Of a DNA stretch of 36,168 nt, positions 16,995-36,010 are shown piece after piece. Positions within the stretch are counted from its first letter, which is position 1. Each line of letters starts with the position of its first letter. This DNA is from Paracoccaceae bacterium (lineage in GTDB: Bacteria; Pseudomonadota; Alphaproteobacteria; Rhodobacterales; Rhodobacteraceae), in assembly GCA_016765235.1 (NCBI GenBank), contig JAESQH010000240.1:1-36168 (forward strand). Direction: 5' to 3'. A program made the position numbers and the translations under genes. A model generated the notes under the pieces. It saw only the letters and a program-made list of their open reading frames with translations. It made no database searches and was not told where the DNA came from.

Positions 16995-17089
16995 ATTGGG
17001 TTTCCTAATTTACGATGAGGACAATTACCATGGATCGGATGATCGAAAAATTAATTGATTTCATCACACCGATAAAATATTCGTCCGAT

Positions 17090-17211
17090 ATGAATATAGG
17101 TGCCATCGAAACATATCTGGTTATAGCGGAATTGGGCGGATTTCATATCGCAGCTCGACGGCTGAACATCACACAAACAGCGGTCAGCGCGCGCATTAAA
17201 TCCCTAGAAAA
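17090..17211 (+). pseudogene. LysR HTH fragment truncated by IS insertion
   Basis: MNIGAIETYLVIAELGGFHIAARRLNITQTAVSARIKSLEK, then the IS left end at 17212; no continuation on the far side of the IS. Confidence 0.85.
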
Positions 17212-18311
17212 GGCGTTGTTGCATGGATCAGTATCCAAGTGTTAACAAGCGCTTTTACCCCGCTCATGGAACCGCTTACTGCCGCATAAATTCAATGGCC
17301 GCCATCGCCATAAATTTGCAAAGAAGAAATACCGCGTAACGAACTGGCGTGCGCATAATGAAAGCCTGCGAAATCGCGGGAATTTGACGATCTGGATCAC
17401 GACTGATGCTCTAAAACACTGGGTTGCACCACAGCGCGGATCGCGCGGCGGGAAGCGTCAATATACGGATCTGGCGATCACCTTGTGCCTGACATTAAGC
17501 ATGGTTTACAAGCTGCCACTGCGCCAAACGCAAGGTTTGATGCGCAGCATATCAAAGCTCATGCAGCTGGAAGTTCTCGTTCCAGATTTCTCGACTCTAT
17601 CGCGCAGAGGGCGAAATCTTGTCCTTCCGGTAAGGCCTAAAACCAAGCGAACCGATCCGATTCATCTGGCGGTGGATAGCACCGGTCTGAAGATCTTCGG
17701 CGTGGGTGAATGGTTGCGAAAGAAACATACAACAGGAGCCAACCGCAAGAAGTGGCGTAAGTTGCACCTCGGGCTTGACCTTACAAGTGGAGAAATTATC
17801 TGTGCCGATTTGACAAAGGACAACGTGGGTGATCCATCTGCCTTGCCTTGTCTTTTGGATCAGGTTGAGGTGCCGGTTGCGCATTTCCTGGCGGATGGAG
17901 CTTACGATGGTGCGCCAACCAGCGGCCTGCTCCAAGAACGGTTTGGTGAGACCGTCGAGATCATCATCCCACCCCCCCGAAACGCGATACCAAGCCCACA
18001 ATCTGCATCTGAACTTTCAATTCGAGACCGACACATTGCTGAGATACAGAACCGTGGCCGCATGGCCTGGCAATCCAGCAGCGGCTATAATCAGCGCAGC
18101 AGAATTGAAACACAAATCGGGTGCTGGAAGACGGTTATCGGGCCCAAACTGAAGGCGCGGTATTTCGAAAATCAGCAAGTAGAGGTAAAGATTGGCGTCA
18201 CTATTCTCAATAAAATGACCGAACTCGGGCGACCCGTGTTCGAACAAATCGCATAACCTAAATTACGGGTAAGGGGTCGTTTCAGCAGTGTCTGATCCAT
18301 GCAACAACGTC
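17212..18311 (+). mobile_element. IS5-family (IS903 group) insertion sequence, 1100 bp
   Basis: TIRs GGCGTTGTTGCATGGATCAG (17212-17231) and CTGATCCATGCAACAACGTC (18292-18311), 19/20 match; no target-site duplication. Confidence 0.88.
17279..18256 (+). CDS. IS5-family DDE transposase
   Basis: The frame extends upstream of the track ORF to CTG 17279 (PHKFN..RHKF.K.KYRVTNW..HNESLRNRG.LTIW). Motifs VDSTGLK, WRKLHLG, ADGAYD, GYNQRSRIET. Confidence 0.85.
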   Translation: MPHKFNGRHRHKFAKKKYRVTNWRAHNESLRNRGNLTIWITTDALKHWVAPQRGSRGGKRQYTDLAITLCLTLSMVYKLPLRQTQGLMRSISKLMQLEVLVPDFSTLSRRGRNLVLPVRPKTKRTDPIHLAVDSTGLKIFGVGEWLRKKHTTGANRKKWRKLHLGLDLTSGEIICADLTKDNVGDPSALPCLLDQVEVPVAHFLADGAYDGAPTSGLLQERFGETVEIIIPPPRNAIPSPQSASELSIRDRHIAEIQNRGRMAWQSSSGYNQRSRIETQIGCWKTVIGPKLKARYFENQQVEVKIGVTILNKMTELGRPVFEQIA

Positions 18312-18929: not shown

Positions 18930-19181
18930 TTACGCCGTCACCTCGATATAACCACGGCGACGTTTATGCTTTTCGAGTTTCTGGAGCGCCGCAACGGCTT
19001 GGTCTTCATCTTCATAGGTCACCATCATCCCTCGCCCTTTGGTACCAATGCGTCCCCAGTTGCGTAGCACCGACACTTCTCCAAAAAGTGTGGGCTGCAC
19101 TTCGATCCCATAGAACCGAGCCATATTTCGCTCAGGATCGACATGGATCAAATTGACTGGGATGACTTCTGGCGAATACAT
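18930..19181 (-). CDS. WGR domain-containing protein
   Basis: NMARFY.I...PTLFGEVSVLRNWGRIGTKG..LEKHKRRRGY. Confidence 0.88.
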   Translation of the reverse strand: MYSPEVIPVNLIHVDPERNMARFYGIEVQPTLFGEVSVLRNWGRIGTKGRGMMVTYEDEDQAVAALQKLEKHKRRRGYIEVTA

Positions 19182-19350
19182 AGTAAGATTATCGCTTCAC
19201 GTCGCCAATCTGTCCAATGACATTACTGAATCATTGCGCTTCAAATGATTCCTATCCATGATGTGAGGTTTAGTTTCGGTCTGCCACGTGAGTTGACAGG
19301 GTAGATAGCGGTTTTCGTGTGAGGATTGATATCTGGGACTTATTGCTACT

Positions 19351-20238
19351 CTAACGACCGCGTGCAAATTTGGGAGTCCAACTATCTACTAGTTGTTCCT
19401 GCTCGTCGTGCGCCTCATCATCAGGATCTTCAGCAAGCTCTTCACTCGACAAAACCGTCAATGTGAAACCGTAGCCCCCAAGCCCAATTATTTCTTCATC
19501 AAGTGCCAAACACCGCCGACACGAAAACCACTGAGACAAACTTGTCTCCCCACAAACCGTACGGGAATATTCAACATTTTTTGGATCGCGATTGAACTGC
19601 AATGTATGCGTATGAGGCAACAGAACCCCTTTCCGCAGAAAGGATAGCTTGTCCAGCGTTTTGAAACTTTCGGACATGAACGCATAGGCAACTTTATCGC
19701 CGGAGCTAACGACAACTGCCATTGGGTAGTCACTGCATTCTGCAGCGCGTATTGCCGACGCGGTTAGTGAGCATTCTGCGAGTTGGCTAAGTGCTACAAT
19801 ACCGTCGAGACCAATGCGGCTGCCCCCTATCACCTCACCGACAAGCCTCGTCGGCATTAACAATCCTGAAGCGAAGTGATCCGCCTCAAGTTCAATTGAG
19901 CTTGTTCCTTGTGAGAACCCGGCTTTGGAAATATGGATGGGTGCCGTTTTAAGAATTTCCTCCGGATGGCCTTCAAGAAAATAATGGCCCAGTTCATGTG
20001 CAACGGTAAACCGACGAAACCCTTCACTCTTGATGTTTGTCGCATAGAAAATTCCCACATTATCGTTGTGGAAAATGATACCACCGCTAACTCCAACTTG
20101 ATCCGGTGCCTTAGGCTCTACGACAATGTCTTCAGCTTCAGCGATCGCAAATGGGTCAATCGGGAAACAATCATAGCCCATCTCTTTGGCCTTTTGTTCG
20201 CCCTGCCGTCTGGCCATCTGAATACGAAACTTGCTCAC
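19351..20238 (-). CDS. capP: ImmA/IrrE-family metallopeptidase (CapP-like)
   Basis: RRFTVAHELGHY (HExxH), E.EADHFASGLLMP, acidic tail; overlaps the HTH gene stop by 4 nt. Confidence 0.8.
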   Translation of the reverse strand: MSKFRIQMARRQGEQKAKEMGYDCFPIDPFAIAEAEDIVVEPKAPDQVGVSGGIIFHNDNVGIFYATNIKSEGFRRFTVAHELGHYFLEGHPEEILKTAPIHISKAGFSQGTSSIELEADHFASGLLMPTRLVGEVIGGSRIGLDGIVALSQLAECSLTASAIRAAECSDYPMAVVVSSGDKVAYAFMSESFKTLDKLSFLRKGVLLPHTHTLQFNRDPKNVEYSRTVCGETSLSQWFSCRRCLALDEEIIGLGGYGFTLTVLSSEELAEDPDDEAHDEQEQLVDSWTPKFARGR

Positions 20239-20570
20239 TTTTCTGACTTTCGTTGGTTCATCAGATCAATCATCATTTGGATGTGATCACGATCACCGCC
20301 TGTGAGATTTTCTTCACCCCGAAAAACCGTTGTCGCACCTTCCATTTTATTTGTTCGCCCAAGCAAATAGTCGGATGTGACATTTAGTGCTTTGGCCAAC
20401 GCTCGAATGTTTGAAAACGATGGTTTACGTCTCTCTTTCTCAAAATGGCCAATCGCCGAGGGTTGCAAACCAGCTTTCGCAGCAAGTTCAGTTTGATTGA
20501 ACTCACGCGCATCTCTTGCTTGCTTCAACCTTTCACCGAATCCACCCGTAGACTCCGAAGAATTTGACAT
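20235..20570 (-). CDS. capH: XRE-family HTH repressor (CapH-like)
   Basis: FGERLKQARDARE.NQTELAAKAGLQPSAIGHFEKERRKPS..L.VTSDYLLGR; divergent from the CBASS operon. Confidence 0.8.
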   Translation of the reverse strand: MSNSSESTGGFGERLKQARDAREFNQTELAAKAGLQPSAIGHFEKERRKPSFSNIRALAKALNVTSDYLLGRTNKMEGATTVFRGEENLTGGDRDHIQMMIDLMNQRKSEK

Positions 20571-20590
20571 GACGCCCCTAACTGTGTTAC

Positions 20591-20664
20591 TATGACGAAT
20601 ACGTAGGATTCGGCCGCTTGCTCGCGGCTTCTTTTTTCACCATATATCCTACGGATACGTCATA
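20591..20664. promoter_or_regulatory. Imperfect 19-bp inverted repeat in the capH/CD-NTase divergent promoter
   Basis: TATGACGAATACGTAGGAT (20591-20609) vs ATCCTACGGATACGTCATA (20646-20664), 17/19 complementary. Confidence 0.6.
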
Positions 20665-20713
20665 AATTGTAAGACAGATAAGAGAATCCGTCAAGCCTGA
20701 GGGGCAGAAGAAT

Positions 20714-22072
20714 ATGAACATTACAACGAATTTCGAAGAATTCGCCCGACAACTTGATATTGACCCGATAGAAGCCGCGGTCATGGATGTGGCGCGGGCG
20801 CTGCAAATCACACAGACGATGCATCAGCAGGCCGAGTCACATTACCGGGGCTTGGCAAGCCATGTTGATCGACCTGGCAGCCCATTCGAGGACTTAGTTG
20901 ACGAGATTTACTCCTCTGGGAGTTTTGCCATTCATGCTGCAACACGGTCTCGTTTGAAACGAGATCAACACGATGTTGATGCAGTTTTGGAGTTGAGCTG
21001 TCCTGCTAGTAGTGACCCGGAATGGGTCATTCGTGATCTCTACACGGCCATCAGGGGTGAAAAGGGCAGCAAATACTTTGATTATCTCATTGAGAAAAAT
21101 AGCCGCTGCGTCACGGTTACATATCCAGATGGCGTCACAGTTGATCTGATGCCGGTGGTCCGTCTGATTGGCCAGCCAGAACGGGTTGCTGTCTTGTTCC
21201 ACTATAAGCGTGAGACTGGGGACAAGTATCATAAGGAAATTAATCCAAAGGGTTTCGCTGAATATTTCAACGGACAGATCGAAACCAGCAAAGCATTTCA
21301 GGATCGATTCGATGCCCGCCGCTTTCTTGTGGACGGTGAAACCTATGTTGAATTAGCAAACCGTATAGCTTCGAACTCAACTACAATTACCCTAGAAAAG
21401 GCCGACACACAGCCGATGCCAGTCCACGTCCCTCTGGATCAGAAATCAGCGCGCGTTGTCGCTCTCCAATTGATTAAGCGCTTCCGTGACAAGAGGTATC
21501 GCAAACATGATGATCATCGTGGCAAGCGCAAACCTCCATCAATTATTATTGCCGCGATTGCGCTGGACGCAGGCCCTGTAAACGACAACCTCGTTGATGA
21601 AGTGATTGCAATTGCCCACCACATGCGGAGGTTGATCCGCAATGCAGAAGGGAACTTGCACCTGCTAAAGGTCAGAAACCCTGCTCATTATCCCGACATT
21701 TTTACTGATCGTTGGCCAGAGGCCAGAAGTGAGCAGCGGCTTTGGTCTTCAGATCTGAAAACCCTTGTTGAACAATTGGAAACACTCAAGCGTGTTGGCT
21801 TTGATCCGGCAGTGGTTCAGTCCACACTGGCTAACCTCTTTGGAGAGAAAGCAGGCGATATCGCGCTGCATGCATATCATCAGGCGCAGACGACCAATCT
21901 TGAGCATGGTGCTTTGGGAATGACACCGAGCGGCAAATTAACTCCCGCCAAACCAACATCAGGGTTAACCACCCCTGTGCTCGGTGCTGGGGTCGCATCA
22001 ACAGGTCTCATTATGCCTGCACGCGCCAATACCAACATGGGGGGAACTATTCCCGATGATAACTGTTGGTGA
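20714..22072 (+). CDS. cGAS/DncV-like nucleotidyltransferase (CD-NTase, SMODS)
   Basis: GSF...DVD catalytic motif, SRCVTV.Y, VDLMP (third Asp), NPKGFAEYFN, K.PPSIII, V.NP...DIFTDRWP, low-complexity linker, C-terminal NTNMGG. Confidence 0.85.
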   Translation: MNITTNFEEFARQLDIDPIEAAVMDVARALQITQTMHQQAESHYRGLASHVDRPGSPFEDLVDEIYSSGSFAIHAATRSRLKRDQHDVDAVLELSCPASSDPEWVIRDLYTAIRGEKGSKYFDYLIEKNSRCVTVTYPDGVTVDLMPVVRLIGQPERVAVLFHYKRETGDKYHKEINPKGFAEYFNGQIETSKAFQDRFDARRFLVDGETYVELANRIASNSTTITLEKADTQPMPVHVPLDQKSARVVALQLIKRFRDKRYRKHDDHRGKRKPPSIIIAAIALDAGPVNDNLVDEVIAIAHHMRRLIRNAEGNLHLLKVRNPAHYPDIFTDRWPEARSEQRLWSSDLKTLVEQLETLKRVGFDPAVVQSTLANLFGEKAGDIALHAYHQAQTTNLEHGALGMTPSGKLTPAKPTSGLTTPVLGAGVASTGLIMPARANTNMGGTIPDDNCW

Positions 22073-22601
22073 ACAAGTGTCCAACATGGCGGATGTATTT
22101 CCTGGATGGTCTTGCGAAAGACCAACTAAGCGCACCGCCGTTTGGATAGGGCAATTACAGCCACATAAGACAATCTATACCCTGCGTGTTGAATACACAG
22201 AGCCGCTTTTGCCTGAAGGAAGGTCTGCACTATATGTGCAGCCGCTTGTAGAGATTCTCAACCCCAAACTCAAACGCCGCTTTGGCAATGCCGAAGGATC
22301 ATTACCACATGTTTATGTGGCACATCCCAGAACAAACCGGATTGGTCCATTCTTGTGTCTGTTCGACGACAAAAAATCCCAGTGGACGTCAGAAAATCTG
22401 ATCAGCAATACCACCATTCCTTGGGCCTCCAACTGGTTGAGCTGCTATGAAAGCTGGCTGGCGACGGGAACATGGTTTGGTACAGGAAAACATATTCAAA
22501 CGGAGTCGAACGGCCGCAGCGCCATTTCGGCATTGATGGAGCATTACTATGCAACAACCTCATACGCGGCGCTCACAGGGTATACTCTCTCAACGCCGTA
22601 A
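22056..22601 (+). CDS. Prokaryotic E2 ubiquitin-conjugating-like protein (short type II CBASS)
   Basis: LPHVY, LCLF (putative catalytic Cys at 22356-22358), W....IS.T.IPWA..WL..YE.WL.TG.W.G.G.H; the start overlaps the CD-NTase tail. Confidence 0.8.
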   Translation: MITVGEQVSNMADVFPGWSCERPTKRTAVWIGQLQPHKTIYTLRVEYTEPLLPEGRSALYVQPLVEILNPKLKRRFGNAEGSLPHVYVAHPRTNRIGPFLCLFDDKKSQWTSENLISNTTIPWASNWLSCYESWLATGTWFGTGKHIQTESNGRSAISALMEHYYATTSYAALTGYTLSTP

Positions 22602-23610
22602 ACAGCTTCCTTGGTCAGAGAATGATTTTCGGATTTTGTCGATAGATGGCGGCGGCATTAAAGGCATTCTGCCTGCTTCCATACTCGCCGAATGCGAAAG
22701 GCGTTTCCTGAAAGGGGGTTCAGCAGCCAATTATTTCGACATGATCGCAGGTACATCTACTGGTGGAATTGTAGCGCTTGGGCTTGGTGCTGGTATGCGT
22801 GCTGACGAGGTTTTACAGATTTACCTTGAGCACGGTGGAGATATTTTCCCAGCACTCTGGACACCGCCCATACCGTTCGGAAACACGTTCAGGTCAGTCT
22901 ATCAATTTGCACGAGACGTCGCTGTTTACCGATATAATCGAGACCCATTGGAACGAGCGCTCCGAGACCGGTTCGGAAACAAGCTTTATGGCGCTATAAA
23001 CAAGCGATTAAATATTCCAACATTTGACGGGTTCAATGAAGTCAATGTTATGAAGACCCCACACCACCCGGATTTTCGCCTTGATTGGCAGGAAGAAATC
23101 GTGACGGTTGCTCTTGCCACATCTGCCGCACCGACCTTCTTTTCCACGTACCGCAACGGCACTCGACATTTTGCTGATGGCGGCGTCTGGGCCAACAATC
23201 CGATTATGGTCGCCCTTGTTGATGTATTGTCGTGCTTTGATGTAAATCGCCACGATATCGACATTCTGTCACTTGGCTGTGGTGATCTCGACATGAAGAT
23301 GACGGATGGCCAGATCAAACGGGGTGGCTTGTTTCATTGGAAAACCATTATTGACAGCGCCATGCATCTGCAGAGCCAGAACGCTTTGGGACAGGCTGGC
23401 CTCCTCATCGGGCGTGAACGGTTACTGAGATTGTCGTCTGCACCGTCACTCACACCTATTGCACTTGATGACTTCAAACGGGCACGCGACGAATTACCGG
23501 CACAAGCCAAGAGATTGGTGGAAGAAAATGCTGAGCGTCTTGAAGCGTTCTTTGATGTACGTCGCCCCCCAGTCACTTTTTATCATGGGCCATTGGTTTG
23601 CCAAAGCTAG
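22549..23610 (+). CDS. Patatin-like phospholipase, CBASS effector (CapV-like)
   Basis: ILSIDGGGIKG, GTSTGG nucleophile, ATSAAPTFF, DGG.WANNP, ILSLG.G. Confidence 0.9.
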   Translation: MQQPHTRRSQGILSQRRKQLPWSENDFRILSIDGGGIKGILPASILAECERRFLKGGSAANYFDMIAGTSTGGIVALGLGAGMRADEVLQIYLEHGGDIFPALWTPPIPFGNTFRSVYQFARDVAVYRYNRDPLERALRDRFGNKLYGAINKRLNIPTFDGFNEVNVMKTPHHPDFRLDWQEEIVTVALATSAAPTFFSTYRNGTRHFADGGVWANNPIMVALVDVLSCFDVNRHDIDILSLGCGDLDMKMTDGQIKRGGLFHWKTIIDSAMHLQSQNALGQAGLLIGRERLLRLSSAPSLTPIALDDFKRARDELPAQAKRLVEENAERLEAFFDVRRPPVTFYHGPLVCQS

Positions 23611-23807
23611 CCCTAACCTCGGTCGCCAGATTATTGACATTGGCGTGATCTATTTCTCGGTGTGCAGATTACCGGGTCAACGCAGCCAAACGTACGCACT
23701 TAGAGAACGCTAGTAGACAAACGACGTATTTTCTAATAGTAGTTTCAACAGAACAATAATAGTAATCTCACAACACACCTACTCGGTTTCTGGTGGAAAG
23801 GGTGGTC

Positions 23808-25082
23808 ATGACAGACACTGCGGATGACTACATACCACGACACCTCTCGCAAGAGCTAACGGACGCACTTACCTCTTCGCGCATTGTCAACCTTGTCGGA
23901 TCTCGCCAAGTTGGCAAGACGACACTCGTACGCGACCTGTTCTATGAGGGAAAGTTCATCACATTGGACGATGAGGCCTTGCTCGCAGCTATCGAGGCTG
24001 ACCCCCAGGGACAGCTTGAAAGTTTAACAAGCGACTTGGGAAACGCGCCTCTGATCATAGATGAAGCGCAGCGCTCAAAATCCCTGTCCCTTTCGATCAA
24101 AAGGATTGTTGATGCAAACAGGCGCAAAGGCCAGTTTGTTCTCACCGGCTCGTCGAACGTTTTCACCAGCGCGGAAATCGCTGACTCTCTTGCTGGCCGT
24201 ATGCGCACTTTGCAACTCTGGCCCCTATCCGCCGCCGAAATCAATCGAAGCGAACCCCAGCACATCCTCGACTGGGCGATCCAAAAAGAACCGAAACTGG
24301 CGCAGCTAAAAACCCCCGATGCATTGTCCCGCAATGATTATATCAATCTCATCCTTATGGGTGGGTACCCAGAGATACGCCAGCTCCCGCTTCGTGCACG
24401 GCACCGCCAGTATCGCGATTACATAAACTCTGTTGTTGAGCGCGATGTCATTGATATTTTACCCATCCGGAAAACAGATGTTCTGCGACGTCTGATTGAT
24501 CAGATGGCGGCACGATCTGGGCAAGAGATAAATATCGCTGAACTCACGAAACTCCTTGGTGTTCGACGCGAAACGATCACCCAGTATCTTGATGTTTTGG
24601 TGCGCCTATCCCTGATCATCAAACATGGTGCGTGGACCTCAGGAGAAGGAAAGCGCGAAGTTAAAAATGCGAAATACCATTTTACCGACAGCGGCCTCGC
24701 GTCAGCTTTGCGCAGATTTAACGCGACAACTTTTAGTATTGAGGAAAACCCAACCGCACTCGGCGGCATTCTTGAAAGCTACATCTTCAATGAATTTCAA
24801 CGATCCCTGCCCCTTCAGGATGAGGACTTCCGCCTGTATCACTGGCGCAGTGCCGACAAAAAAGAAGTCGATATTTTGGCAGACGCAGGATCAAAGCTGG
24901 TCGGCATCGAGGTAAAATCCGCCGCAACAGTCAGCAACGATGATTTCAAACACTTACGGTGGTTTGCAAAAGATGGGCCGGGTAAAAATCGTATGTTCAC
25001 TGGTATTGTATTTTACATGGGCACCGAGAAACTCTCCTTTGGGGATCGGCAATTTGCTTTACCGATTAGCAGTCTGATGTGA
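23808..25082 (+). CDS. AAA_14 ATPase with C-terminal DUF4143 (PD-(D/E)xK-like) domain
   Basis: GSRQVGKTT, IIDEAQR, FVLTGSS, SLAGR, GGYPE, K.HF.DSGL, YHWR....EVD, IEVK. Confidence 0.88.
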   Translation: MTDTADDYIPRHLSQELTDALTSSRIVNLVGSRQVGKTTLVRDLFYEGKFITLDDEALLAAIEADPQGQLESLTSDLGNAPLIIDEAQRSKSLSLSIKRIVDANRRKGQFVLTGSSNVFTSAEIADSLAGRMRTLQLWPLSAAEINRSEPQHILDWAIQKEPKLAQLKTPDALSRNDYINLILMGGYPEIRQLPLRARHRQYRDYINSVVERDVIDILPIRKTDVLRRLIDQMAARSGQEINIAELTKLLGVRRETITQYLDVLVRLSLIIKHGAWTSGEGKREVKNAKYHFTDSGLASALRRFNATTFSIEENPTALGGILESYIFNEFQRSLPLQDEDFRLYHWRSADKKEVDILADAGSKLVGIEVKSAATVSNDDFKHLRWFAKDGPGKNRMFTGIVFYMGTEKLSFGDRQFALPISSLM

Positions 25083-25451: not shown

Positions 25452-26492
25452 TCATGAATCGTTAAGCACCTTTTCTATATAGCTCAGCGAGCTGATTATT
25501 TCTTCAAATTCAGGCGCATCGCCAAAAATCATTGCCTTTGTGTTTTCATAATCTTTCTTTAGGCGATCTTTCATTTCACCGTTTGGAAGCAGATTAAAAG
25601 TCCCGGGTTCTGCCGACGCCAAATTGAAGTCGGGCCTGTTAAAAAACGTCAGCGCGTGCGCAACGCAATCCCTGCCAAGTGCCAAATCTTTGACGGCCTT
25701 TTTGCCGGTATCTGTTTGCAAAAGGCAATGAAGATCATAGTAGTGGCGGGAAATCCGTTGCCCCTCCTGACGCACTTCACCCCGCCGCTCAAACCAGTTC
25801 TTCATACCGTGAGCGATTACTATCTTGTCCCAAAAGGTGCGCTCGGCATCAATGGTTGTAACATCTGGAATTTCCAGGTCGATCGAGCTAACTTCGTCTG
25901 CTATGTATGGCGTTATCATGCGCGGTTGGTTTGGGTCCAAGGCTGACTTAGCACCGGACTCAATCCGCACCGCGGCTTGGACATAACCGGACGCTGGTGC
26001 ATCAATTCTCGGATACCAAACCAAAAGTGTTTGGCCACTTGCATCAGTCTTATCAATCTCGACCCTCCCCTGCCCGTCCGTGTCTTCTGCCAAGATCGTT
26101 GAAACTGACATTAAAAGATCACCCGTGATGAAAGTTCGGCAGGAATCCGCTATCGCTGCAAGCATCGCTTTTCGTTTCTTATTGGAAAGCGATGCTATTT
26201 CTTCTGGCACTTCAGGATAACCAAGGTCATCGCGAAAGACAGTGACATCGATATCTTCAGAAAATCGATTAATAAGTCCATATGCTTTGGAAAGAGAGGT
26301 CCCGCCCTTGAACAGTAATCTTGGCCCGCCCGCGGGCAATCGATGATAAAGAACGTTCAGCGTCCAGCAGACCCAAAAGTCCTTTTCTATGTTGACGAGT
26401 GGCGCGCCGAGGCGTTTTGCCGTTGCCAAAAACAGACCTGTTCGGTCGTTCTCCGGCGCGCGAATGATATCGATAAATCCATCGGAAGTCAT
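25452..26492 (-). CDS. abiEii: AbiEii-family nucleotidyltransferase toxin (intact)
   Basis: IEKDFWVCW, FKGGTSLSKAY, RFSEDID, RIESGA, ERTFWDK, SRHYYD; ATGA overlap with the antitoxin stop gives start 26492. Confidence 0.9.
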   Translation of the reverse strand: MTSDGFIDIIRAPENDRTGLFLATAKRLGAPLVNIEKDFWVCWTLNVLYHRLPAGGPRLLFKGGTSLSKAYGLINRFSEDIDVTVFRDDLGYPEVPEEIASLSNKKRKAMLAAIADSCRTFITGDLLMSVSTILAEDTDGQGRVEIDKTDASGQTLLVWYPRIDAPASGYVQAAVRIESGAKSALDPNQPRMITPYIADEVSSIDLEIPDVTTIDAERTFWDKIVIAHGMKNWFERRGEVRQEGQRISRHYYDLHCLLQTDTGKKAVKDLALGRDCVAHALTFFNRPDFNLASAEPGTFNLLPNGEMKDRLKKDYENTKAMIFGDAPEFEEIISSLSYIEKVLNDS

Positions 26493-27154
26493 GGATCTAT
26501 ATCCTGTCTTGAAAGCTCCAACGGTTTTCGTAAAAATTCCTGCATCCAAATCGGCAGAGCTGAAAGACCTTCTCTTAGATCAACTGCAAGAGCATTTCCC
26601 TTGTCACCAGATGCCAAGAGCGCTTCGATTGCCCTTTTGACTTTTGCCCGTTCCTCTTTGTTGTTCATAACATCCTGCATCCAATGTAGGGCTTGAACTA
26701 TCGACATCGCAGGTCGGCCCGCCCAAAAAAGACGGCTTGGTGCCGCGTATTTAAAAACGATCTTCTGATTGCCAAAAGAGATCGTTTTGAGCCGTGCATC
26801 TACCAAGACCTCTATTTTTGCCGGAACAGCAGTTGTCAGCCCAAGCTCATTTGCTGCCGTCATACCATCTATGACAAATCGCGCTTTATCCCGTCTCGCA
26901 ACAGCCTCTATGACCGCACGATAATCAGGAACGGTTTCACTGTCGGTAAGGGAATTAAACGAAGGTTTATCATAAAGTCCTCGTTCGATGCGTCGCAGCT
27001 CACCACTTCTAGCAAGGCGCTGTAACGTTTTATCAACCGCATCACGCACAGCCAGATCGACAAAATCTCCGGGTGTCCAAACGCTCCTGGGATTTTGCGC
27101 TACGCGCTGCATCATTAGGTAGCGCAGTTTCGAGGTATTTTTTTTATTAGTCAT
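26489..27154 (-). CDS. abiEi: AbiEi-like antitoxin (DUF6088 family)
   Basis: VWTPGDF..RDAVDKTLQRL..GELRRIERGLYDKP, AANELGLTTAVP, QALHW. The start choice (27154) is uncertain. Confidence 0.85.
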   Translation of the reverse strand: MTNKKNTSKLRYLMMQRVAQNPRSVWTPGDFVDLAVRDAVDKTLQRLARSGELRRIERGLYDKPSFNSLTDSETVPDYRAVIEAVARRDKARFVIDGMTAANELGLTTAVPAKIEVLVDARLKTISFGNQKIVFKYAAPSRLFWAGRPAMSIVQALHWMQDVMNNKEERAKVKRAIEALLASGDKGNALAVDLREGLSALPIWMQEFLRKPLELSRQDIDP

Positions 27155-27222
27155 GTCCGAAATATGACACATACTTCGGACGAATCCAAGTATTGTCCGA
27201 AGTATGTGTCATATTTCGGACA
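27154..27222. promoter_or_regulatory. Perfect 28-bp inverted repeat with 13-bp spacer; each arm is itself GTCCGAA-N13-TTCGGAC; probable double AbiEi operator
   Basis: TGTCCGAAATATGACACATACTTCGGAC (27154-27181) is the exact reverse complement of 27195-27222. Confidence 0.8.
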
Positions 27223-30462: not shown

Positions 30463-31749
30463 TCAAGCGTCTTCGAAAAATCCTTCATCAAGCCCTTCCC
30501 AGAACTCGAATATCGATCGGCCGTTCAAAGCTGAACGCCAGCCATGTCGCGAAAAATCCTCGCGATCCAGATCATTTTCAAGAGTCGCCAGAAATAGCCG
30601 CTTGTCCGCGTCCCGTTGGGTTGGCGTGCGATTAGCCACATGTGCCAGAACACGCTCCAGTCGCACCGCCCTGCCCCGCCGGTCGGCCGCTCGGTTTGCG
30701 TCGGCCAACTCCGCCGCATCCTCTTGTGCCGCCGCCTGGTTTACCCGCCTCGCCGCCGCGGCCTGTGCCTCAGGCGATGGCGCAGCAGGTTGTTTATCCA
30801 CATAATCATCGCGGATCGCGGCGCTCAGATACTGCGCAGCACTCCCCTTGATGGCCCCTGCCCTGCTTTTAGCTGCAACATAGGCAAGTTTTTGCACCAC
30901 ATAATCCTCGCCATGTTCCGCTATCCATTGGCGCGCCAATCGGTCCGAAACCCCCTGCCCCACAAGCTCGCCGTAAACACCCGACGTTCGTACCCCTTCG
31001 CTATCATCGATCTCGAACATCGCCAGTTGCGGGTTTTCCTTTATCAAAAACCGGATATGCGAAACCTTGCGGCCCTGTTTGCGAAACTCCGGGGTCACCA
31101 TAATATTCGAGGTTTTGTTAACCTCGACAACAGCAGGTTTGATAATCTTCGCATTCAAATGCTTGAAGCTTTCGTAATACGTGCTGTCACTCACCCCCAT
31201 CAGGCGGCGAAACAGGTCAATTTCCCACCATCCGGTCGATCCGGTGCGAACAAATCTAAAACAGTTCTCATACAGCGCCAAGCCGTGTCCGCTAGTAAAC
31301 CGTCGTTGGATATTAAGGTTAATCAGCGCAAAAATCTTGGGGTCAAACAGTTTTTCCGCCAACGCGGGGGAATAGGCGTATTCGCAAACTCCGGCCTTCA
31401 GCTTGGCATAGGAAAGCAGGCTGGATACCCCCCATTCCTGTTTTCCGTCCTTATCCAGCATGTCCCATTCCGCGACGGTTTCCGCCAGCGATCGCAAGGC
31501 CCCGCGCAACGTATCAATATCGTTGGAATTATACCCGATCATCAAACACAGTGTTTTGGCATCAATAGAATGCGACGGCTTGGTAATCAGTTCATCATAG
31601 GCATTCAGCAGTAAAACATTTGATAATTTCCGCTGCAACAACGACAGTTTGCCGCTTACATGAATTGCCGCTACATTCTTTTTCACGCTGTCACGCCGCA
31701 AAGCCCCTGACAGCTTTTCCCGCGGGATGGTATCTTCAACCTGATTCAT
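30463..31749 (-). CDS. repB: Plasmid replication initiator, Rep_3 family (RepB-type of Rhodobacterales)
   Basis: KLSLLQRKL.NVLL.NAY, LYENC.RF...GSTGW, LMGV....Y..FK.LNAK.IKPAV.EVN; adjacent iterons and divergent parAB. Confidence 0.85.
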   Translation of the reverse strand: MNQVEDTIPREKLSGALRRDSVKKNVAAIHVSGKLSLLQRKLSNVLLLNAYDELITKPSHSIDAKTLCLMIGYNSNDIDTLRGALRSLAETVAEWDMLDKDGKQEWGVSSLLSYAKLKAGVCEYAYSPALAEKLFDPKIFALINLNIQRRFTSGHGLALYENCFRFVRTGSTGWWEIDLFRRLMGVSDSTYYESFKHLNAKIIKPAVVEVNKTSNIMVTPEFRKQGRKVSHIRFLIKENPQLAMFEIDDSEGVRTSGVYGELVGQGVSDRLARQWIAEHGEDYVVQKLAYVAAKSRAGAIKGSAAQYLSAAIRDDYVDKQPAAPSPEAQAAAARRVNQAAAQEDAAELADANRAADRRGRAVRLERVLAHVANRTPTQRDADKRLFLATLENDLDREDFSRHGWRSALNGRSIFEFWEGLDEGFFEDA

Positions 31750-32292: not shown

Positions 32293-33699
32293 ATGAGCAG
32301 AAAACCAGAACAGCCGTCCCCTCCGTACATGAATCTCGATCCAGAGAGTGCCGCCGCGAAACTAGGGGATCCTATCAACACCCACCGATTCGCCCAAGCC
32401 GCATCATTCTGCGCCAAAGGTCGCATTGATCTAGCCAAGCGCGGACACGCCCCGGATGGCAAAAAAAGGCTGCGGAAATTTTCGACTTGGGAGATCACAA
32501 AATACCTGATCCCTCTAGCCCCGGCCCACTTCCGTCGTGTCCTCAAGAACCACCCGGAGTTACCACAAGGCGAGACCGAAACCGGTACAGAAAACGGCGC
32601 CAAGTGGTTCAGCCTCGAAGAAATATTGATCCTGCGCGAACACTTCGCAGCCGAGGGGGTCGCGACCAAGGAATATAAGCCCTACAAACCCGAAGGCGCT
32701 CCTGCCAAGATCACCGCCATCGCCAATTTCAAAGGCGGTGTAGGCAAGACTTCGACAGCGGCTCATCTGGCAATGTCGGCAGCGTTGGACGGTTACAAAG
32801 TGCTGGTGATCGATCTTGATAGCCAAGGGTCTATGACCTCCATTATGGGAGGTCAGGTCGAGGATGAATGGTCCACGGTTTTCCCGCTGATAGCCAAGGA
32901 TTTTGCCAAATCGCTGGTGGCTGAAAATCAGATTCGCGAGGCTGCAAACGAGGCGCCTATTCCGCTCGATGAAACCTTGCAAGAGGCGTTGAATATAACG
33001 GCGGCGGATGTCATCCAAAGCACGCATTGGCCCAATATCGACCTTATCGGCGCACAGCTGAACCTCTATTGGGCGGAGTTTCAGATACCCGTATGGCGGA
33101 CAACGCTTAAGGGGTGGAAGTTATGGGACGGGCTGACAAATTTCCTTGAGGACGAGGGGATTTTGCAAAAGTACGATGTCATTATTCTGGATACCCCCCC
33201 TGCCCTCGGCTATCTGACGATCAACGCTTTGGCGGCAGCGGATATCCTGCTGGTTCCTCTTGGGGCGTCGTTTCTGGAATTCGATTCTACTGGCCGTTTC
33301 TTTGATATGCTTTACACCACATTCGCCTCGATCGAAGACGGGGAAAATGCGCTAAACCGTGCCGCCGGAATGCCGGAAGTTCGGTTTGAATGGGACGTGG
33401 TTCGCGCGATCATCACCCGCTTCGATGCCAGTCAACAAACAGAGCTGGCGAACGTCATCCAGGCGTATTTCGGGGATTTCATGAATGCCTACCGTCAAGA
33501 ATATACTGCGCTTGTCGGGCAAGCTGGTGAACAAGTGAACGGAATTTATGAGGCGGACTATCGGGATTTCAATCGGGAAACCTACGTACGCGGGCGAGAA
33601 ACTTTCGACAGAACTTACGCAGAATTTAAGGAATTGCTGATAGGTTGCTGGTGGCGCGATGCGCATATGGATGAAGGAGAGACCAATGGCGAGACGTAG
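32293..33699 (+). CDS. parA: ParA-family partition ATPase with N-terminal extension
   Basis: ANFKGGVGKT, DLDSQGS, ILDTPPALG, AAD.LLVP. Confidence 0.93.
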   Translation: MSRKPEQPSPPYMNLDPESAAAKLGDPINTHRFAQAASFCAKGRIDLAKRGHAPDGKKRLRKFSTWEITKYLIPLAPAHFRRVLKNHPELPQGETETGTENGAKWFSLEEILILREHFAAEGVATKEYKPYKPEGAPAKITAIANFKGGVGKTSTAAHLAMSAALDGYKVLVIDLDSQGSMTSIMGGQVEDEWSTVFPLIAKDFAKSLVAENQIREAANEAPIPLDETLQEALNITAADVIQSTHWPNIDLIGAQLNLYWAEFQIPVWRTTLKGWKLWDGLTNFLEDEGILQKYDVIILDTPPALGYLTINALAAADILLVPLGASFLEFDSTGRFFDMLYTTFASIEDGENALNRAAGMPEVRFEWDVVRAIITRFDASQQTELANVIQAYFGDFMNAYRQEYTALVGQAGEQVNGIYEADYRDFNRETYVRGRETFDRTYAEFKELLIGCWWRDAHMDEGETNGET

Positions 33700-34747
33700 A
33701 AGGTTAAACGCACCAAGCGCGGAGGATCTGGCGAAAATTGCGGAGGGTTTCGCTGCGGAACAGAACACGGGGAAACGCCCAGCAGGGCTTGGGCCATCGG
33801 CCCCGATTGCGCGGGTTGTTGGCGAAGCGGCAGGCATATCGACCGAAGAGCGGATCAAAGCGGCGAAATACGACACGGCCAAAGCAGATGGGCTGCTGGC
33901 GGTGAGTATTCCGCTGGATTCAATCATTGTGGACCACCTAAGCCGAGATCGTATGCGCGCTGACGATGACGAGTTGGCAGAGCTGCGCCACAGCATTCTT
34001 GCGCATGGTATGCGGATGCCAATCGAAGTTCTGGAGTTAGATACCGCGGATGATCCACAATACGGTCTTATATCCGGCTGGCGGCGGCTGGCGGCGCTTC
34101 GTGCGTTGGAGGTGGAAACCGGCAAGCCGGAATTCGGACAAATTGCAGCGCTGGTGCGCCGTCCCAAGGATGCGTCGGACGCGTATATCTCGATGGTTGA
34201 AGAAAACGAGATCAGATCGGATCTGAGCCAGTTTGAACGCGGCAGGATTGCTGTCGTTTCTTCGGGGCAGGGTGCATTCGATACGGTTGAAGACGCGGTG
34301 GACGCGCTGTTTGCGGCGGGATCAAAAGCGAAGCGTTCAAAAATTCGCAGCTTTGCTTTGATTTTCGAGGAGCTGGGCGATCTGCTGGTTTTCCCGACTT
34401 ATATGTCGGAGCGTGCGGGATTGCGATTGGCAGCGGCACTTAAGGCTGGCAAAGGGCATCATTTCCGTAAAGTGTTGGCCGACAGCACAGCCGAGACTTT
34501 CGAGGCGGAATGGAAGGTTCTGGAAGGGCCGCTCAAGGATCACGAAGCCGATCTAAAGGTTAAGGTGACCGAGCGGCGCGCCCCGAAACCCGTTAAACAC
34601 GGGGTCATTGAATTGGCGAATGGCATTACAATCGAGAAGATTAACTCCGACGGCTTTATCGATATACGGTTTCGCGGAAAACATGCGGATAATGTGCTGG
34701 TTGATACAGTGATGTTGGAAATTCAGAGATTACTGGAGCCGATCTAG
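33686..34747 (+). CDS. parB: ParB-family partition protein
   Basis: AAGGAG SD plus ATG 33686; RDR, G.RMPIEV, LISGWRRL.AL, MVEENEIR.DLS.FE.G. Confidence 0.92.
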   Translation: MARRRRLNAPSAEDLAKIAEGFAAEQNTGKRPAGLGPSAPIARVVGEAAGISTEERIKAAKYDTAKADGLLAVSIPLDSIIVDHLSRDRMRADDDELAELRHSILAHGMRMPIEVLELDTADDPQYGLISGWRRLAALRALEVETGKPEFGQIAALVRRPKDASDAYISMVEENEIRSDLSQFERGRIAVVSSGQGAFDTVEDAVDALFAAGSKAKRSKIRSFALIFEELGDLLVFPTYMSERAGLRLAAALKAGKGHHFRKVLADSTAETFEAEWKVLEGPLKDHEADLKVKVTERRAPKPVKHGVIELANGITIEKINSDGFIDIRFRGKHADNVLVDTVMLEIQRLLEPI

Positions 34748-34849: not shown

Positions 34850-36010
34850 ATGACTGAAAGACTTGCGAAACGCCGAATAGAAAAGGCGCTGAGTGTCCAG
34901 CCAGCGGTTGTGCTTCTTGGGCCACGGCAAGTTGGAAAAACCACGCTGGCGCTGGAAATAGCGGCCGGGCGCGATGCCATACATCTGGATATGGAGCGGC
35001 ATCAGGACCGGCAAATACTGCAAGAACCCGATCTGTATCTGGATGAGCAGGCCGGGCGATTGGTGGTGATTGACGAGGTGCAGCTGTTGCCGGACTTGTT
35101 CAGTTCCTTGCGGGGTCAAATTGACCAGAGGCGGCGCGACGGGTATCGCATCGGGCAGTTTCTGCTGCTGGGATCGGCCAGTAATACATTATTGCGCCAG
35201 TCGGCAGAATCCTTGGCCGGACGGGTGTCTTATCACGAGCTGGGTGGGTTGAATGTACAGGAGGTAGGGCAGGGCGCGTTGAATGCGCTGTGGCTGCGCG
35301 GCGGTTTTCCAGGTGCTTTTTTGGCTGAGGGGGGCGAAAACAGCCTTCAGTGGCGTGATGATTTCATCCGCACATATCTGGAGCGCGATATTCCGACGTT
35401 CGGCGCGCGGGTGCCGGCGGCGACGCTTAGGCGGTTCTGGACAATGTTGGCGCATAATCAGGGCGGGTTGCTGAACGCGGCGCGACTGGCGGCTGGCTTG
35501 GGGGTTTCGGGGCAATCTGTCGGGCGGTATCTGGATTTGATGGTCGATCTAATGTTGGTCAGGCGACTTGAGCCGTGGCACGCAAATGCGGGCAAACGGT
35601 TGGTGAAATCCCCCAAGATATATGTTCGTGACAGCGGTTTGGCGCATAGTTTGTTGAATATACTGACACCAGAGGCCCTGTTGGCGCATCCGGTGGTTGG
35701 TGGCAGTTGGGAGGGTTTCGTGATCGAAAACCTGCTTAGCGTTGCGCCAATTGGAACGGATGCGTGTTTTTACCGATCCTCGGGTGGGGCGGAGGTTGAT
35801 TTGGTGCTTACCTTACCGGACGGCGCGGTTTGGGCGATAGAAATCAAGCGAACCGGCACGCCAAAAGTTGCACGCGGGTTTCATACGGCCAGTGCCGATG
35901 TCGGGGCCACGGCGCGGTTTCTGGTTTATGCGGGGGATCGTGAGGTTCCGATGCTAAACGACATTCGCGCTTTGCCGTTGTTGGCGCTGATGGACCGGTT
36001 ATCCCAGTAA
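34850..36010 (+). CDS. AAA_14 ATPase with DUF4143 domain (second paralog)
   Basis: GPRQVGKTT, VIDEVQ, FLLLGS, ESLAGR, LWLRGGFP, KSPKIY.RDSGL, FYR..GGAEVDL, IEIK. Confidence 0.9.
   Translation: MTERLAKRRIEKALSVQPAVVLLGPRQVGKTTLALEIAAGRDAIHLDMERHQDRQILQEPDLYLDEQAGRLVVIDEVQLLPDLFSSLRGQIDQRRRDGYRIGQFLLLGSASNTLLRQSAESLAGRVSYHELGGLNVQEVGQGALNALWLRGGFPGAFLAEGGENSLQWRDDFIRTYLERDIPTFGARVPAATLRRFWTMLAHNQGGLLNAARLAAGLGVSGQSVGRYLDLMVDLMLVRRLEPWHANAGKRLVKSPKIYVRDSGLAHSLLNILTPEALLAHPVVGGSWEGFVIENLLSVAPIGTDACFYRSSGGAEVDLVLTLPDGAVWAIEIKRTGTPKVARGFHTASADVGATARFLVYAGDREVPMLNDIRALPLLALMDRLSQ

Follow-up and report, generated by a model that had tools for sequence, protein, structure and literature searches.

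An E2-CBASS cassette with a divergent CapH/CapP regulator pair on a plasmid-like Rhodobacteraceae contig

The 36,168-nt Paracoccaceae contig analysed here (the window) carries, on the evidence of its sequence, what is very probably a complete and apparently functional E2-CBASS (type II short CBASS) abortive-infection cassette, arranged as a discrete 4.25-kb module. capP (295 aa, 19351-20238) and capH (111 aa, 20235-20570) lie on the minus strand with a 4-nt overlap, divergent from three plus-strand genes: cdnG (452 aa, 20714-22072), a stand-alone UBC-like E2 gene that overlaps it by 17 nt (181 aa, 22056-22601), and a patatin gene that overlaps the E2 gene by 53 nt (353 aa, 22549-23610). A shared control region (20571-20713) separates capH from cdnG. 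All five ORFs, found where the original prediction had placed them (19351-23610), are full length, with frameshifts and stops absent from every gene. A PADLOC search, which had been proposed as a check, matched all five proteins to the corresponding CBASS models near full length (E from 1e-30 to 7e-149), and Pfam was concordant (Peptidase_M78, HTH_3, SMODS, Patatin). PADLOC, PDB and Foldseek also agree with the functional reading first put forward, that of an E2-only type II short CBASS that has a patatin as its effector and a divergent CapH/CapP pair. As predicted, no E1 or JAB gene was found among the window ORFs examined, and genome searches located these families on other contigs only. The catalytic motifs had likewise been described as intact, and the corresponding residues are present and conserved in the cyclase, E2, patatin and CapP. 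Which genes are present, that their motifs are intact, to which families they belong in sequence and fold, and that the cassette and its control elements are conserved were established directly; every biochemical step proposed below would follow by homology.

By sequence and modelled fold, the cyclase is a clade G CD-NTase, which supplies the clade assignment that the original prediction had called for. It matched the PADLOC cyclase model PDLC00800 (6.9e-149), and its nearest solved relative by sequence was BdCdnG from Bradyrhizobium (PDB 7LJN, 1.8e-39), followed by SmCdnG from the Serratia CdnG-E2 complex (PDB 8HSB, 1.1e-9). Foldseek with an AF2 model (pLDDT 83) gave the same order, 7LJN first (TM 0.87 on the target) and then 8YJY/8HSB. 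Both BdCdnG and SmCdnG come from E2-CBASS operons (PMC12948482). The catalytic residues G69-S70, D87, D89 and D144 are present and invariant in the homologue alignment. The YSSGS motif singled out in the original prediction is real, but YPQGS, given there as the norm among relatives, occurs only in two solved distant relatives; near relatives have YASGS or YPSGS, the latter being the family majority. Serine or alanine at the proline position is common to at least 15 relatives that retain all other conserved residues. Read from the alignment, YSSGS is lineage drift at a non-catalytic position, beside an intact Gly-Ser.

The closest characterised cyclase, BdCdnG, makes 3'3'-cUMP-GMP (PMC10442399), and by analogy this is the likely signal here as well; the signal molecule had been thought probably uncharacterised, a view that the known product of BdCdnG does not favour. 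The extrapolation is weakened by the distance involved, BdCdnG family members being only ~45% identical to the window cyclase. This distance also leaves a considerable chance, if a smaller one than that of 3'3'-cUMP-GMP, that the same system signals with a different dinucleotide, such as the 3'2'-cGAMP made by SmCdnG, EcCdnG and AsCdnG. 3'2'-cGAMP is the product of several characterised clade G enzymes, and the top entries matched by the lipase in the PDB and in NCBIfam carry the name cGAMP-activated phospholipase, although names in annotation libraries do not fix ligand specificity. Against 3'2'-cGAMP, BdCdnG is much closer than SmCdnG both by sequence and by fold, the donor-guanine (lid-3) motif D328xxxD332 fits the (D/E)xxxD guanine-donor motif of CdnG10, and the Serratia positions S167 and Y172 are lost, replaced by I and F.

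Two further features of the cyclase may bear on its activation. A variable, partly disordered surface loop at about residues 208-245 (21335-21448, plus strand), seen as a length-variable block in the alignment, exceeds that of Bradyrhizobium-type relatives by ~18 residues, with pLDDT below 50 at residues 223-231 and means of 47-62 over 221-240. Hobbs and Kranzusch (2026) report activation loops in almost every clade G cyclase, and the window loop, presumably at the same three-dimensional position, is a candidate protease-sensing activation loop. The C-terminus (22040-22069, plus strand) consists of G443-G444 and an 8-residue tail, TIPDDNCW; ARANTNMGG and an acidic tail are kept across more than 60 cyclase homologues. 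The conserved Gly-Gly and short tail fit the behaviour of SmE2, which links itself to SmCdnG and in doing so removes C-terminal extensions after Gly (PMC12948482), and we infer from this analogy that G443-G444 and the tail are the site of E2 processing and conjugation. A point against the reading of the cassette as a whole is that the monomer model shows the C-terminal E2-binding helix and beta-sheet of the cyclase only weakly.

The E2 protein matched PADLOC model PDLC00877 (2.7e-48) and SmE2 (PDB 8HSB_B, 2.1e-13) with the catalytic cysteine aligned. This residue, C101, lies in LCLF, and PHVY occupies positions 84-87; C101, H85, P84 and Y87 are each conserved at 90% or more among 74 homologues. 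Translation would start at the ATG at 22056 (MITVGEQ), a start conserved in relatives and preceded by a Shine-Dalgarno-like tract formed by the GGG GGA codons of the cyclase Gly-Gly. No obvious counterpart of K159, the isopeptide lysine of SmE2, was found in the window E2, where no Lys follows K145, another point against the reading as a whole. The patatin, which has GGAG 7 nt ahead of its ATG, is by its sequence matches a CapV-like phospholipase effector: it matched PADLOC phospholipase effector PDLC00757 (3.1e-108), the NCBIfam CBASS_lipase equivalog (230.4 bits; cut-off 200) and the CBASS phospholipases 9WN1, 9KH7 and 8ZR9 in the PDB, and the alignment shows GGG at 34-36, G-T-S70-T-G and D210-G-G to be conserved.

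The divergent HTH and HExxH peptidase pair noticed in the original prediction was identified as CapH/CapP by PADLOC, Pfam and PDB matches. CapP, an ImmA/IrrE-type zinc metallopeptidase, matched PADLOC (1.4e-61 over 3-241 of 242 profile positions), Pfam Peptidase_M78 and Thauera CapP (PDB 7T5T, 5e-10), with H81-E-L-G-H85 and E118 in the alignment. The cysteine-switch loop is absent, its Cys missing from the aligned loop; such a loop occurs in only 33% of CapPs (Lau et al. 2022). CapH, an XRE-type HTH repressor with a C-terminal oligomerisation region, matched PADLOC (1.5e-30), Pfam HTH_3 and, in the PDB, the CapH HTH (7T5U) and ImmR (7T8I). Its segment GATT[AV]FRGEENL does not vary among 22 Rhodobacteraceae relatives, and F83-R84 would be the conserved Phe-Arg at the position of the CapP cleavage site, mapped in E. 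coli CapH to F82|R83 (Lau et al. 2022). In E. coli MS115-1, capP was dispensable for defence against a lytic phage (Lau et al. 2022, section 7), so DNA-damage induction may or may not contribute to defence.

Within the control region, TGACGNNNNCGTAGGAT occurs as two inverted copies, at 20593-20609 (plus) and 20646-20662 (minus), its only two occurrences in the window, where 0.1 would be expected; a genome search found no exact copies elsewhere. The pair was detected as a 19-nt inverted repeat that is 89% complementary. Promoters were predicted at 20564-20593 (plus), where the first hexamer reaches into the capH start codon, and at 20694-20666 (minus), each matching at 10 of 12 positions, and the inverted 17-bp sites appear to be CapH operators at the starts of these two face-to-face promoters. 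The same scan placed a terminator-like hairpin with a T-run at 20612-20638, between the predicted plus-strand promoter and cdnG, which counts against this arrangement and points either to an incomplete promoter assignment or to an additional layer of control. All of these elements are conserved in 16 relatives. One could suppose that the cassette is intact in sequence yet silent or non-functional in its host, owing for example to the Pro-to-Ser change beside Gly-Ser, where YSSGS departs from the family majority, or to the hairpin in the predicted leader, and a second CBASS, of E1E2/JAB type, does exist elsewhere in the genome. We regard this as very improbable, given the relatives with S or A at the motif position, the five uninterrupted genes and the hairpin, whose conservation in 16/16 Rhodobacteraceae copies implies function rather than decay.

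The original prediction had considered the combination, on a Roseobacter-type plasmid, probably uncharacterised. The cassette is not rare: all five genes recur at unchanged spacing, with 73-83% protein identity, in at least 20 species of Rhodobacteraceae. A catalogue of 408 systems had already recorded CapH/CapP upstream of CBASS types I, II and III that carry phospholipase effectors (Lau et al. 2022), and E2-CBASS biochemistry was published in 2024-2026 (Yan et al. 2024; Xiao et al. 2026, PMC12948482). The window copy is thus another member of a cassette type already catalogued, and biochemically studied in other bacteria; what this analysis would add are the CapH operators and promoters, the CapH Phe-Arg, the cyclase tail and loop, and the likely signal. 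The proposed Roseobacter-type plasmid setting is borne out by a Rep_3 initiator and ParA/ParB, the closest Rep homologues (69-72%) being on plasmids of Rhodobacter, Leisingera, Phaeobacter and Sulfitobacter. No terminal overlap of the contig ends was found in a circularity check, and sequence supports a RepB-type (Rep_3) Rhodobacteraceae plasmid-like contig as the carrier. The cassette is flanked by defence neighbours, PDC-S01, which lies between the lipase and AbiE genes, and AbiEi/AbiEii. This plasmid-type setting, the adjoining AbiE-type toxin-antitoxin genes, the repetition of cassette and AbiE on Salipiger plasmid pTPRO5 and an inducer that is DNA damage rather than a phage-specific cue could suggest a module for stress-induced killing or addiction, mainly in the service of the plasmid, stabilising the replicon or excluding rival mobile elements, with phage defence secondary. 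Such a role is very improbable: copies occur not only on finished plasmids (Salipiger, Thioclava, Marinibacterium) but also on large chromosomal-looking contigs of other Rhodobacteraceae, a remnant lies on the Tateyamaria chromosome, the cassette has no antitoxin-like component, and every tested CBASS of the same design defends against phage. The cassette ends are sharp limits of DNA similarity between copies.

An anti-phage cassette of this kind may work as follows. In the unstressed cell, CapH dimers or tetramers would occupy the two inverted 17-bp sites, one at each promoter start point, and keep both capH-capP and cdnG-E2-patatin low. Single-stranded DNA, arising through damage or as phage replicate, would activate CapP, which would cut CapH at F83|R84, with loss of the oligomerisation helix and de-repression of the operon. 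E2, through C101, would trim the 8-residue tail after G443-G444 and conjugate the cyclase via that glycine without an E1, priming it. The final trigger would be infection, plausibly a phage prohead protease that cleaves the disordered cyclase loop. The cyclase would then use GTP as the donor for a cyclic dinucleotide, most likely 3'3'-cUMP-GMP as in BdCdnG, alternatively 3'2'-cGAMP, and this nucleotide would activate the patatin lipase to degrade membrane phospholipid, so that the cell dies before phage release.

Among known systems, the CdnG operon of Bradyrhizobium diazoefficiens (BdCdnG, clade CdnG10, E2-CBASS) offers the closest solved cyclase in sequence and fold. BdCdnG shares the guanine-donor motif with the window cyclase. 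Bradyrhizobium loci of this family likewise combine CdnG, E2 and patatin, and family members of Bradyrhizobium type have the C-terminal Gly motif with a short tail; they differ in the shorter loop, in YPQGS (BdCdnG) instead of YSSGS, and in the absence of CapH/CapP upstream in the loci examined. The Serratia marcescens E2-CBASS (SmCdnG-SmE2; 8HSB, 8YJY, 9KKB) resembles the window in its stand-alone E2 with the catalytic Cys in LCLF, in a clade G cyclase whose C-terminus has Gly-Gly and a short tail, E2-processed in Serratia, and in an operon without E1 or JAB genes. However, its cyclase is only distantly related (1e-9), its product is cGAMP according to its authors (Yan et al. 2024; Xiao et al. 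2026, PMC12948482), its E2 acceptor K159 has no clear counterpart in the window, and a CapH/CapP pair, present in the window, is not described in its cited papers. The closest regulator pair is that of the E. coli MS115-1 type III CBASS, together with CapP of Thauera sp. K11 (7T5T, 7T5U; Lau et al. 2022). The E. coli and window pairs are both divergent, have a promoter region in common with the CBASS genes, combine an HTH repressor bearing a C-terminal oligomerisation region with an HExxH peptidase, and have Phe-Arg at the CapH cleavage position. In the window, however, the pair accompanies a type II short CBASS, not a type III system, CapP has no cysteine-switch loop, and the predicted operators are an inverted 17-bp pair, 53 bp apart, at promoter starts, whereas E. 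coli has a single 22-bp site upstream of the -35. The same cassette is carried by Salipiger profundus plasmid pTPRO5 (NZ_CP014801.1), a different host plasmid (103 kb, conjugative, MOBP), with its genes in identical order and at identical spacing and with a cyclase of 75.7% identity; PGAP names the lipase 'CBASS cGAMP-activated phospholipase', and AbiEi/AbiEii again follow the cassette. The window differs further in having a PDC-S01 gene between lipase and AbiE.

Five genes at 19351-23610 very probably make up an E2-CBASS, the short type II class in which a cyclase is paired with a stand-alone E2, under the control of a CapH/CapP repressor and peptidase pair. In the six-frame ORF list, capP (19351-20238, 295 aa) and capH (20235-20570, 111 aa) lie on the minus strand and diverge from cdnG (20714-22072, 452 aa) and, further downstream on the plus strand, a patatin lipase gene (22549-23610, 353 aa). 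The E2 gene between these two occupies a long plus-strand ORF (21984-22601), with its real start at the ATG at 22056, from which 181 aa are counted and where the N-terminus, MITVGEQ, is kept among relatives. Neighboring genes overlap by 4 nt (capP/capH), 17 nt (cdnG/E2) and 53 nt (E2/patatin), and none of the five contains a frameshift or internal stop. The Shine-Dalgarno-like tracts of the E2 and lipase genes are located within the preceding genes: that of the E2, GGGGGGA, is formed by the cyclase codons for Gly-Gly and stops 10 nt short of the ATG, and for the lipase GGAG is found 7 nt 5' of the ATG.

Each of the five proteins matches the corresponding PADLOC CBASS model near full length (capP, 1.4e-61; capH, 1.5e-30; cyclase PDLC00800, 6.9e-149; E2 PDLC00877, 2.7e-48; phospholipase effector PDLC00757, 3.1e-108). 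The Pfam families Peptidase_M78, HTH_3, SMODS (above its cut-off) and Patatin are also represented. The lipase exceeds the NCBIfam CBASS_lipase equivalog cut-off (230.4 bits vs. 200) and matches solved CBASS phospholipases in the PDB; for the cyclase, E2, CapH and CapP, NCBIfam has no specific models and returned sub-threshold matches only. Residues expected of active enzymes are retained. Conservation among 74 lipase homologues is at least 95% for D-G-G-G (33-36), G-T-S70-T-G and D210-G-G. A 30-sequence alignment of the cyclase (43-92% identity) shows no variation at G69-S70, D87, D89 and D144, and the catalytic residues align with the active sites of the solved Serratia marcescens (SmCdnG) and Bradyrhizobium (BdCdnG) enzymes. 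In the E2, C101 in LCLF and the preceding PHVY (84-87) all reach at least 90% conservation across 74 homologues. The original prediction of a complete set of intact genes, read as a short type II CBASS with a patatin effector and a CapH/CapP-like switch, is thus borne out by ORFs, PADLOC, Pfam and conserved residues. We infer the mechanistic details (E2 processing, the cyclase loop, regulation and the signal) by homology.

The proposed lack of E1 and JAB genes also held: none was found among the window ORFs examined, the E2 has no ThiF region in its 181 aa, and genome-wide matches to E1-E2 and Prok-JAB fall only on six other contigs (C124, C184, C30, C47, C173 and C203). Some of these belong to a second, canonical type II CBASS (C124:1-1544 and C184:3264-5058; loci L082, L090, L091 and L095), which comprises a different cyclase (PADLOC PDLC00770, 5e-142), a Cap2 E1-E2 gene split over two contig ends, and a Prok-JAB gene (Cap3), in that order. 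Both classes of type II CBASS are thus present in this host. On C30 (501-1622; L093, L096), a 766-aa open frame with Prok-JAB and E1-like regions may encode another ubiquitin-like (6a-type) defense protein.

The closest references, in both sequence and fold, together with a lid-3 motif, place the cyclase in clade G, probably in subclade G10 (BdCdnG-like). The nearest solved chain by sequence is BdCdnG (7LJN, 1.8e-39), followed by SmCdnG from the CdnG-E2 complex (8HSB, 1.1e-9). An alignment-based AlphaFold2 model (mean pLDDT 83, pTM 0.82) gave the same order in Foldseek, with 7LJN first (TM 0.87 on target), then 8YJY/8HSB, then CdnB and CdnD enzymes. BdCdnG is itself a member of E2-CBASS, clade G accounts for 73.65% of E2-CBASS cyclases, and E2-CBASS cyclases exceed their E1E2/JAB counterparts in length (Xiao et al., 2026, PMC12948482). 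The cyclase is thus typical of its class.

This placement bears on the signal, which had been considered probably uncharacterized. That applies to the protein itself, but its closest characterized relative, BdCdnG (subclade G10), is given as a maker of 3'3'-cUMP-GMP (PMC10442399). In BdCdnG the guanine of the donor GTP is read by a lid-3 (D/E)xxxD motif, through E305 and D309 (PMC10442399). The equivalent in the window cyclase is D328-I-F-T-D332, with both Asp invariant within the family alignment, whereas the SmCdnG donor-pocket residues S167 and Y172 are replaced by I and F. The relative's product, the retained lid-3 motif and the replaced Serratia residues together favor 3'3'-cUMP-GMP, which would be the single most likely product, with a chance slightly short of even; 3'2'-cGAMP is the main alternative to it.

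A further feature flagged in this enzyme was YSSGS in place of a supposedly usual YPQGS. The motif is present, but YPQGS is not the norm among relatives: it is confined to the two solved structures, both distant, and near relatives have YASGS or YPSGS. Among 120 homologues the motif is CYPSGS in 55, VYPSGS in 22, IYPSGS in 14, IYASGS in 11 and IYSSGS in four, including the window protein. All Ala/Ser variants are confined to the nearest subclade (at least 68% identity), and Gly-Ser never varies. We therefore rejected YSSGS as a functional anomaly; by its distribution across the alignment, it is lineage drift.

The cyclase C-terminus suggests how the E2 may act. The sequence ARANTNMG-G is followed by TIPDDNCW, the Gly-Gly (443/444) is near-invariant in homologues, and most of these carry an acidic tail of about eight residues after it. 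SmCdnG likewise ends in G397-G398 and a short tail (PMC12948482). SmE2, its Serratia partner, becomes joined to the cyclase C-terminus by an SDS-stable link, removing a C-terminal GFP in the process (PMC12948482). The window E2 matches SmE2 (8HSB_B, 2.1e-13) with the catalytic Cys aligned, and by homology it would trim the cyclase tail and conjugate G444 with no need for an E1. The two E2s differ in the acceptor. In SmE2 the isopeptide acceptor is K159, in a disordered tail (PMC12948482), whereas the window E2 has no lysine after K145 (tail residues 146-181), and K145 itself is Arg in many relatives. The lysine-free tail (residues 146-181) is a subclade feature, and overlaps the lipase start by 53 nt. 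In the AlphaFold2 monomer of the cyclase there is a helix at 380-397 and short strands at 401-403 and 409-411, with confidence below 50 from residue 407; given this collapse, the model weakly supports an E2-binding motif of a helix plus a three-stranded sheet.

Another cyclase segment may serve as a sensor. Between RRFLVDG and EKADTQPMP, the family alignment varies in length by 0-19 residues, with the window subclade the longest, and the resulting surface loop is disordered in the model (pLDDT <50 at 223-231). EcCdnG is switched on by phage prohead proteases that cut such a loop, and almost every cyclase of clades A and G is reported to carry a loop of this kind (Hobbs and Kranzusch, bioRxiv 2026). 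By analogy, the window loop is a reasonable candidate for a similar protease tripwire.

The divergent HTH and HExxH peptidase genes were likewise recognized correctly in the original prediction, as coordinates, PADLOC and solved structures agree: CapP matches Thauera CapP (7T5T), and CapH matches the CapH HTH (7T5U) and ImmR. By alignment, the CapP active site consists of H81-E-L-G-H85 and E118. No Cys is aligned between HELGH and E118, where a cysteine-switch loop would lie. Such a loop is found in 33% of CapPs and missing from two thirds (Lau, 2022), and two distant relatives (L040, L044) have FTCSK at that place. In CapH, F83-R84 lies in the block GATT[AV]FRGEENL, which is invariant across 22 Rhodobacteraceae copies, and the site is [F/Y/H]-R in 25 homologues, distant copies included. 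E. coli CapH is cut at F82|R83 (Lau, 2022). F83-R84 occupies the same position, at the start of the C-terminal oligomerization helix, and is thus a candidate cleavage site.

The 143-bp capH-cdnG intergenic region holds two inverted copies of TGACGNNNNCGTAGGAT (20593-20609 and 20646-20662), each with an internal ACG-N4-CGT dyad, as candidate CapH operators. These are the sole exact copies in the 3.1-Mb genome. A consensus scan predicted a plus-strand promoter (TTGACA-18-TACTAT, 20564-20593) and a minus-strand promoter (TTGACG-17-TACAAT, 20694-20666), each matching 10 of 12 positions, against a chance expectation of 0.5 such sites. The predicted promoters face each other, and one operator copy is located at the start point of each. 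CapH forms dimers and tetramers (Lau, 2022), which makes it plausible that the protein bridges the two sites. One-mismatch operator copies elsewhere in the genome number five, vs. two for a reversed-pattern control, and we claim no wider CapH regulon. Midway between the operators, in the predicted cdnG leader, lies GCCGC-N6-GCGGC with a T-run (20612-20638), which may act as attenuator, insulator or protein site. Operators, promoters and hairpin are all kept in 16 Rhodobacteraceae copies. The hairpin stem is invariant in these and its loop shows four changes; with an invariant stem, covariation cannot separate an RNA hairpin from a DNA palindrome. Folded as RNA, the predicted 119-nt leader is unremarkable (z-score -1.8), and a riboswitch-like function is not claimed for it.

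A survey with one genome per species returned 187 loci with cyclase relatives, the best 80 of which were examined. Among these 80, the nearest relatives (73-75% identity) are all Rhodobacteraceae and include Donghicola, Limimaricola, Sedimentitalea, Litoreibacter, Jannaschia, Aliiroseovarius, Pseudooceanicola, Roseovarius, Thalassovita, Frigidibacter, Shimia, Primorskyibacter and a Marinibacterium plasmid. Nearly all of the best 80 have the CdnG-E2-patatin trio, and in Sphingomonadales, Xanthomonadales, a spirochaete and a deltaproteobacterium more distant CapP-like genes lie 5' of it. All five genes, identically spaced and with 63-83% protein identity, recur in at least 20 Rhodobacteraceae loci. 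DNA similarity with relatives extends from ~19345 to ~23590 and ends there, so the predicted limits, 19351-23610, delimit the cassette well, and such sharp boundaries mark it as a discrete mobile unit. Its occurrence is patchy: only one of 200 other family genomes (one per genus) has a homologue, a distant one. In a protein-level search the cassette was found on finished plasmids of Salipiger profundus, Thioclava nitratireducens and Marinibacterium anthonyi; megablast of the region against PLSDB plasmids gave no match. The PGAP annotation of Salipiger pTPRO5 already has the lipase as "CBASS cGAMP-activated phospholipase," and there, as in the window, AbiEi/AbiEii come after the cassette.

A Roseobacter-type plasmid setting had been proposed for the cassette, and is supported by a Rep_3 initiator (30463-31749), ParA/ParB (32293-34747) and the 69-72% identity of the Rep protein to Rep from plasmids of Rhodobacter, Leisingera and further Rhodobacteraceae. 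The window is an entire contig of an assembly of 257 contigs and 3.12 Mb, and a check for circularity showed no overlap between its ends. The cassette and its neighbors, an IS5-family transposase, a small WGR-domain gene, a PDC-S01 ATPase and an AbiEi/AbiEii pair, form a small defense island. Two paralogous AAA_14-DUF4143 ATPase genes (23793-25082 and 34850-36010) match PDC-S01, a candidate defense family (4e-139 and 6e-93); one of them is directly 3' of the lipase. An intact AbiEii (1e-98) and AbiEi (8e-94) pair occupies 25452-27172. At a second AbiE locus (144-1755), AbiEii is broken up between two ORFs (144-623 and 645-1250) and is therefore probably disrupted, with a DUF6088/AbiEi-like gene alongside (1159-1755). 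The IS5-family DDE transposase gene (17384-18256) directly follows a 76-aa LysR N-terminal HTH-like fragment (region 17015-18256), which suggests that the insertion cut a regulator gene. The stand-alone WGR-domain protein (18930-19181, 83 aa) adjoins capP outside the conserved boundary, and it was rejected as a cassette partner because DNA similarity in relatives ends at 19345. A 145-aa ORF (1973-2410) that matches just the last 40 positions of a T6SS Tle1-like phospholipase domain is probably a gene remnant.

The direct importance of the locus is small: the family to which it contributes a further intact E2-CBASS with CapH/CapP is already catalogued. The five-gene module moves as a unit among chromosomes and plasmids of the marine Roseobacter group, which is useful for annotation of their genomes and for roseophage ecology. 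A more ambitious reading, which we consider unlikely, is that the Rhodobacteraceae subclade combines three control layers in one 4.25-kb module. In the first, two CapH operators would overlie the start points of the facing promoters, and the conserved leader hairpin would act as an attenuator. In the second, the E2 would process the capped cyclase with no tail lysine, giving a thioester-only or K145-linked intermediate, unlike in Serratia. In the third, the enlarged surface loop would be a tripwire tuned to roseophage prohead proteases. With all three in place, this would offer a compact natural model that integrates DNA-damage induction and phage-protease sensing in CBASS. The operator pair, the Phe-Arg site, the capped Gly-Gly tail and the long loop are mutational targets for a marine model system.

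Comparison with known systems does not support the suggestion that the combination of parts is novel. The same cassette is found across Rhodobacteraceae, and neither the parts nor their combination at this locus are new in kind. E2-CBASS is a recognized class, present in 616 genomes, and its E2 chemistry and a cyclase-E2 structure are already published. CapH/CapP pairs adjoin 408 CBASS systems, which span types I, II and III and some of which have phospholipase effectors (Lau, 2022).
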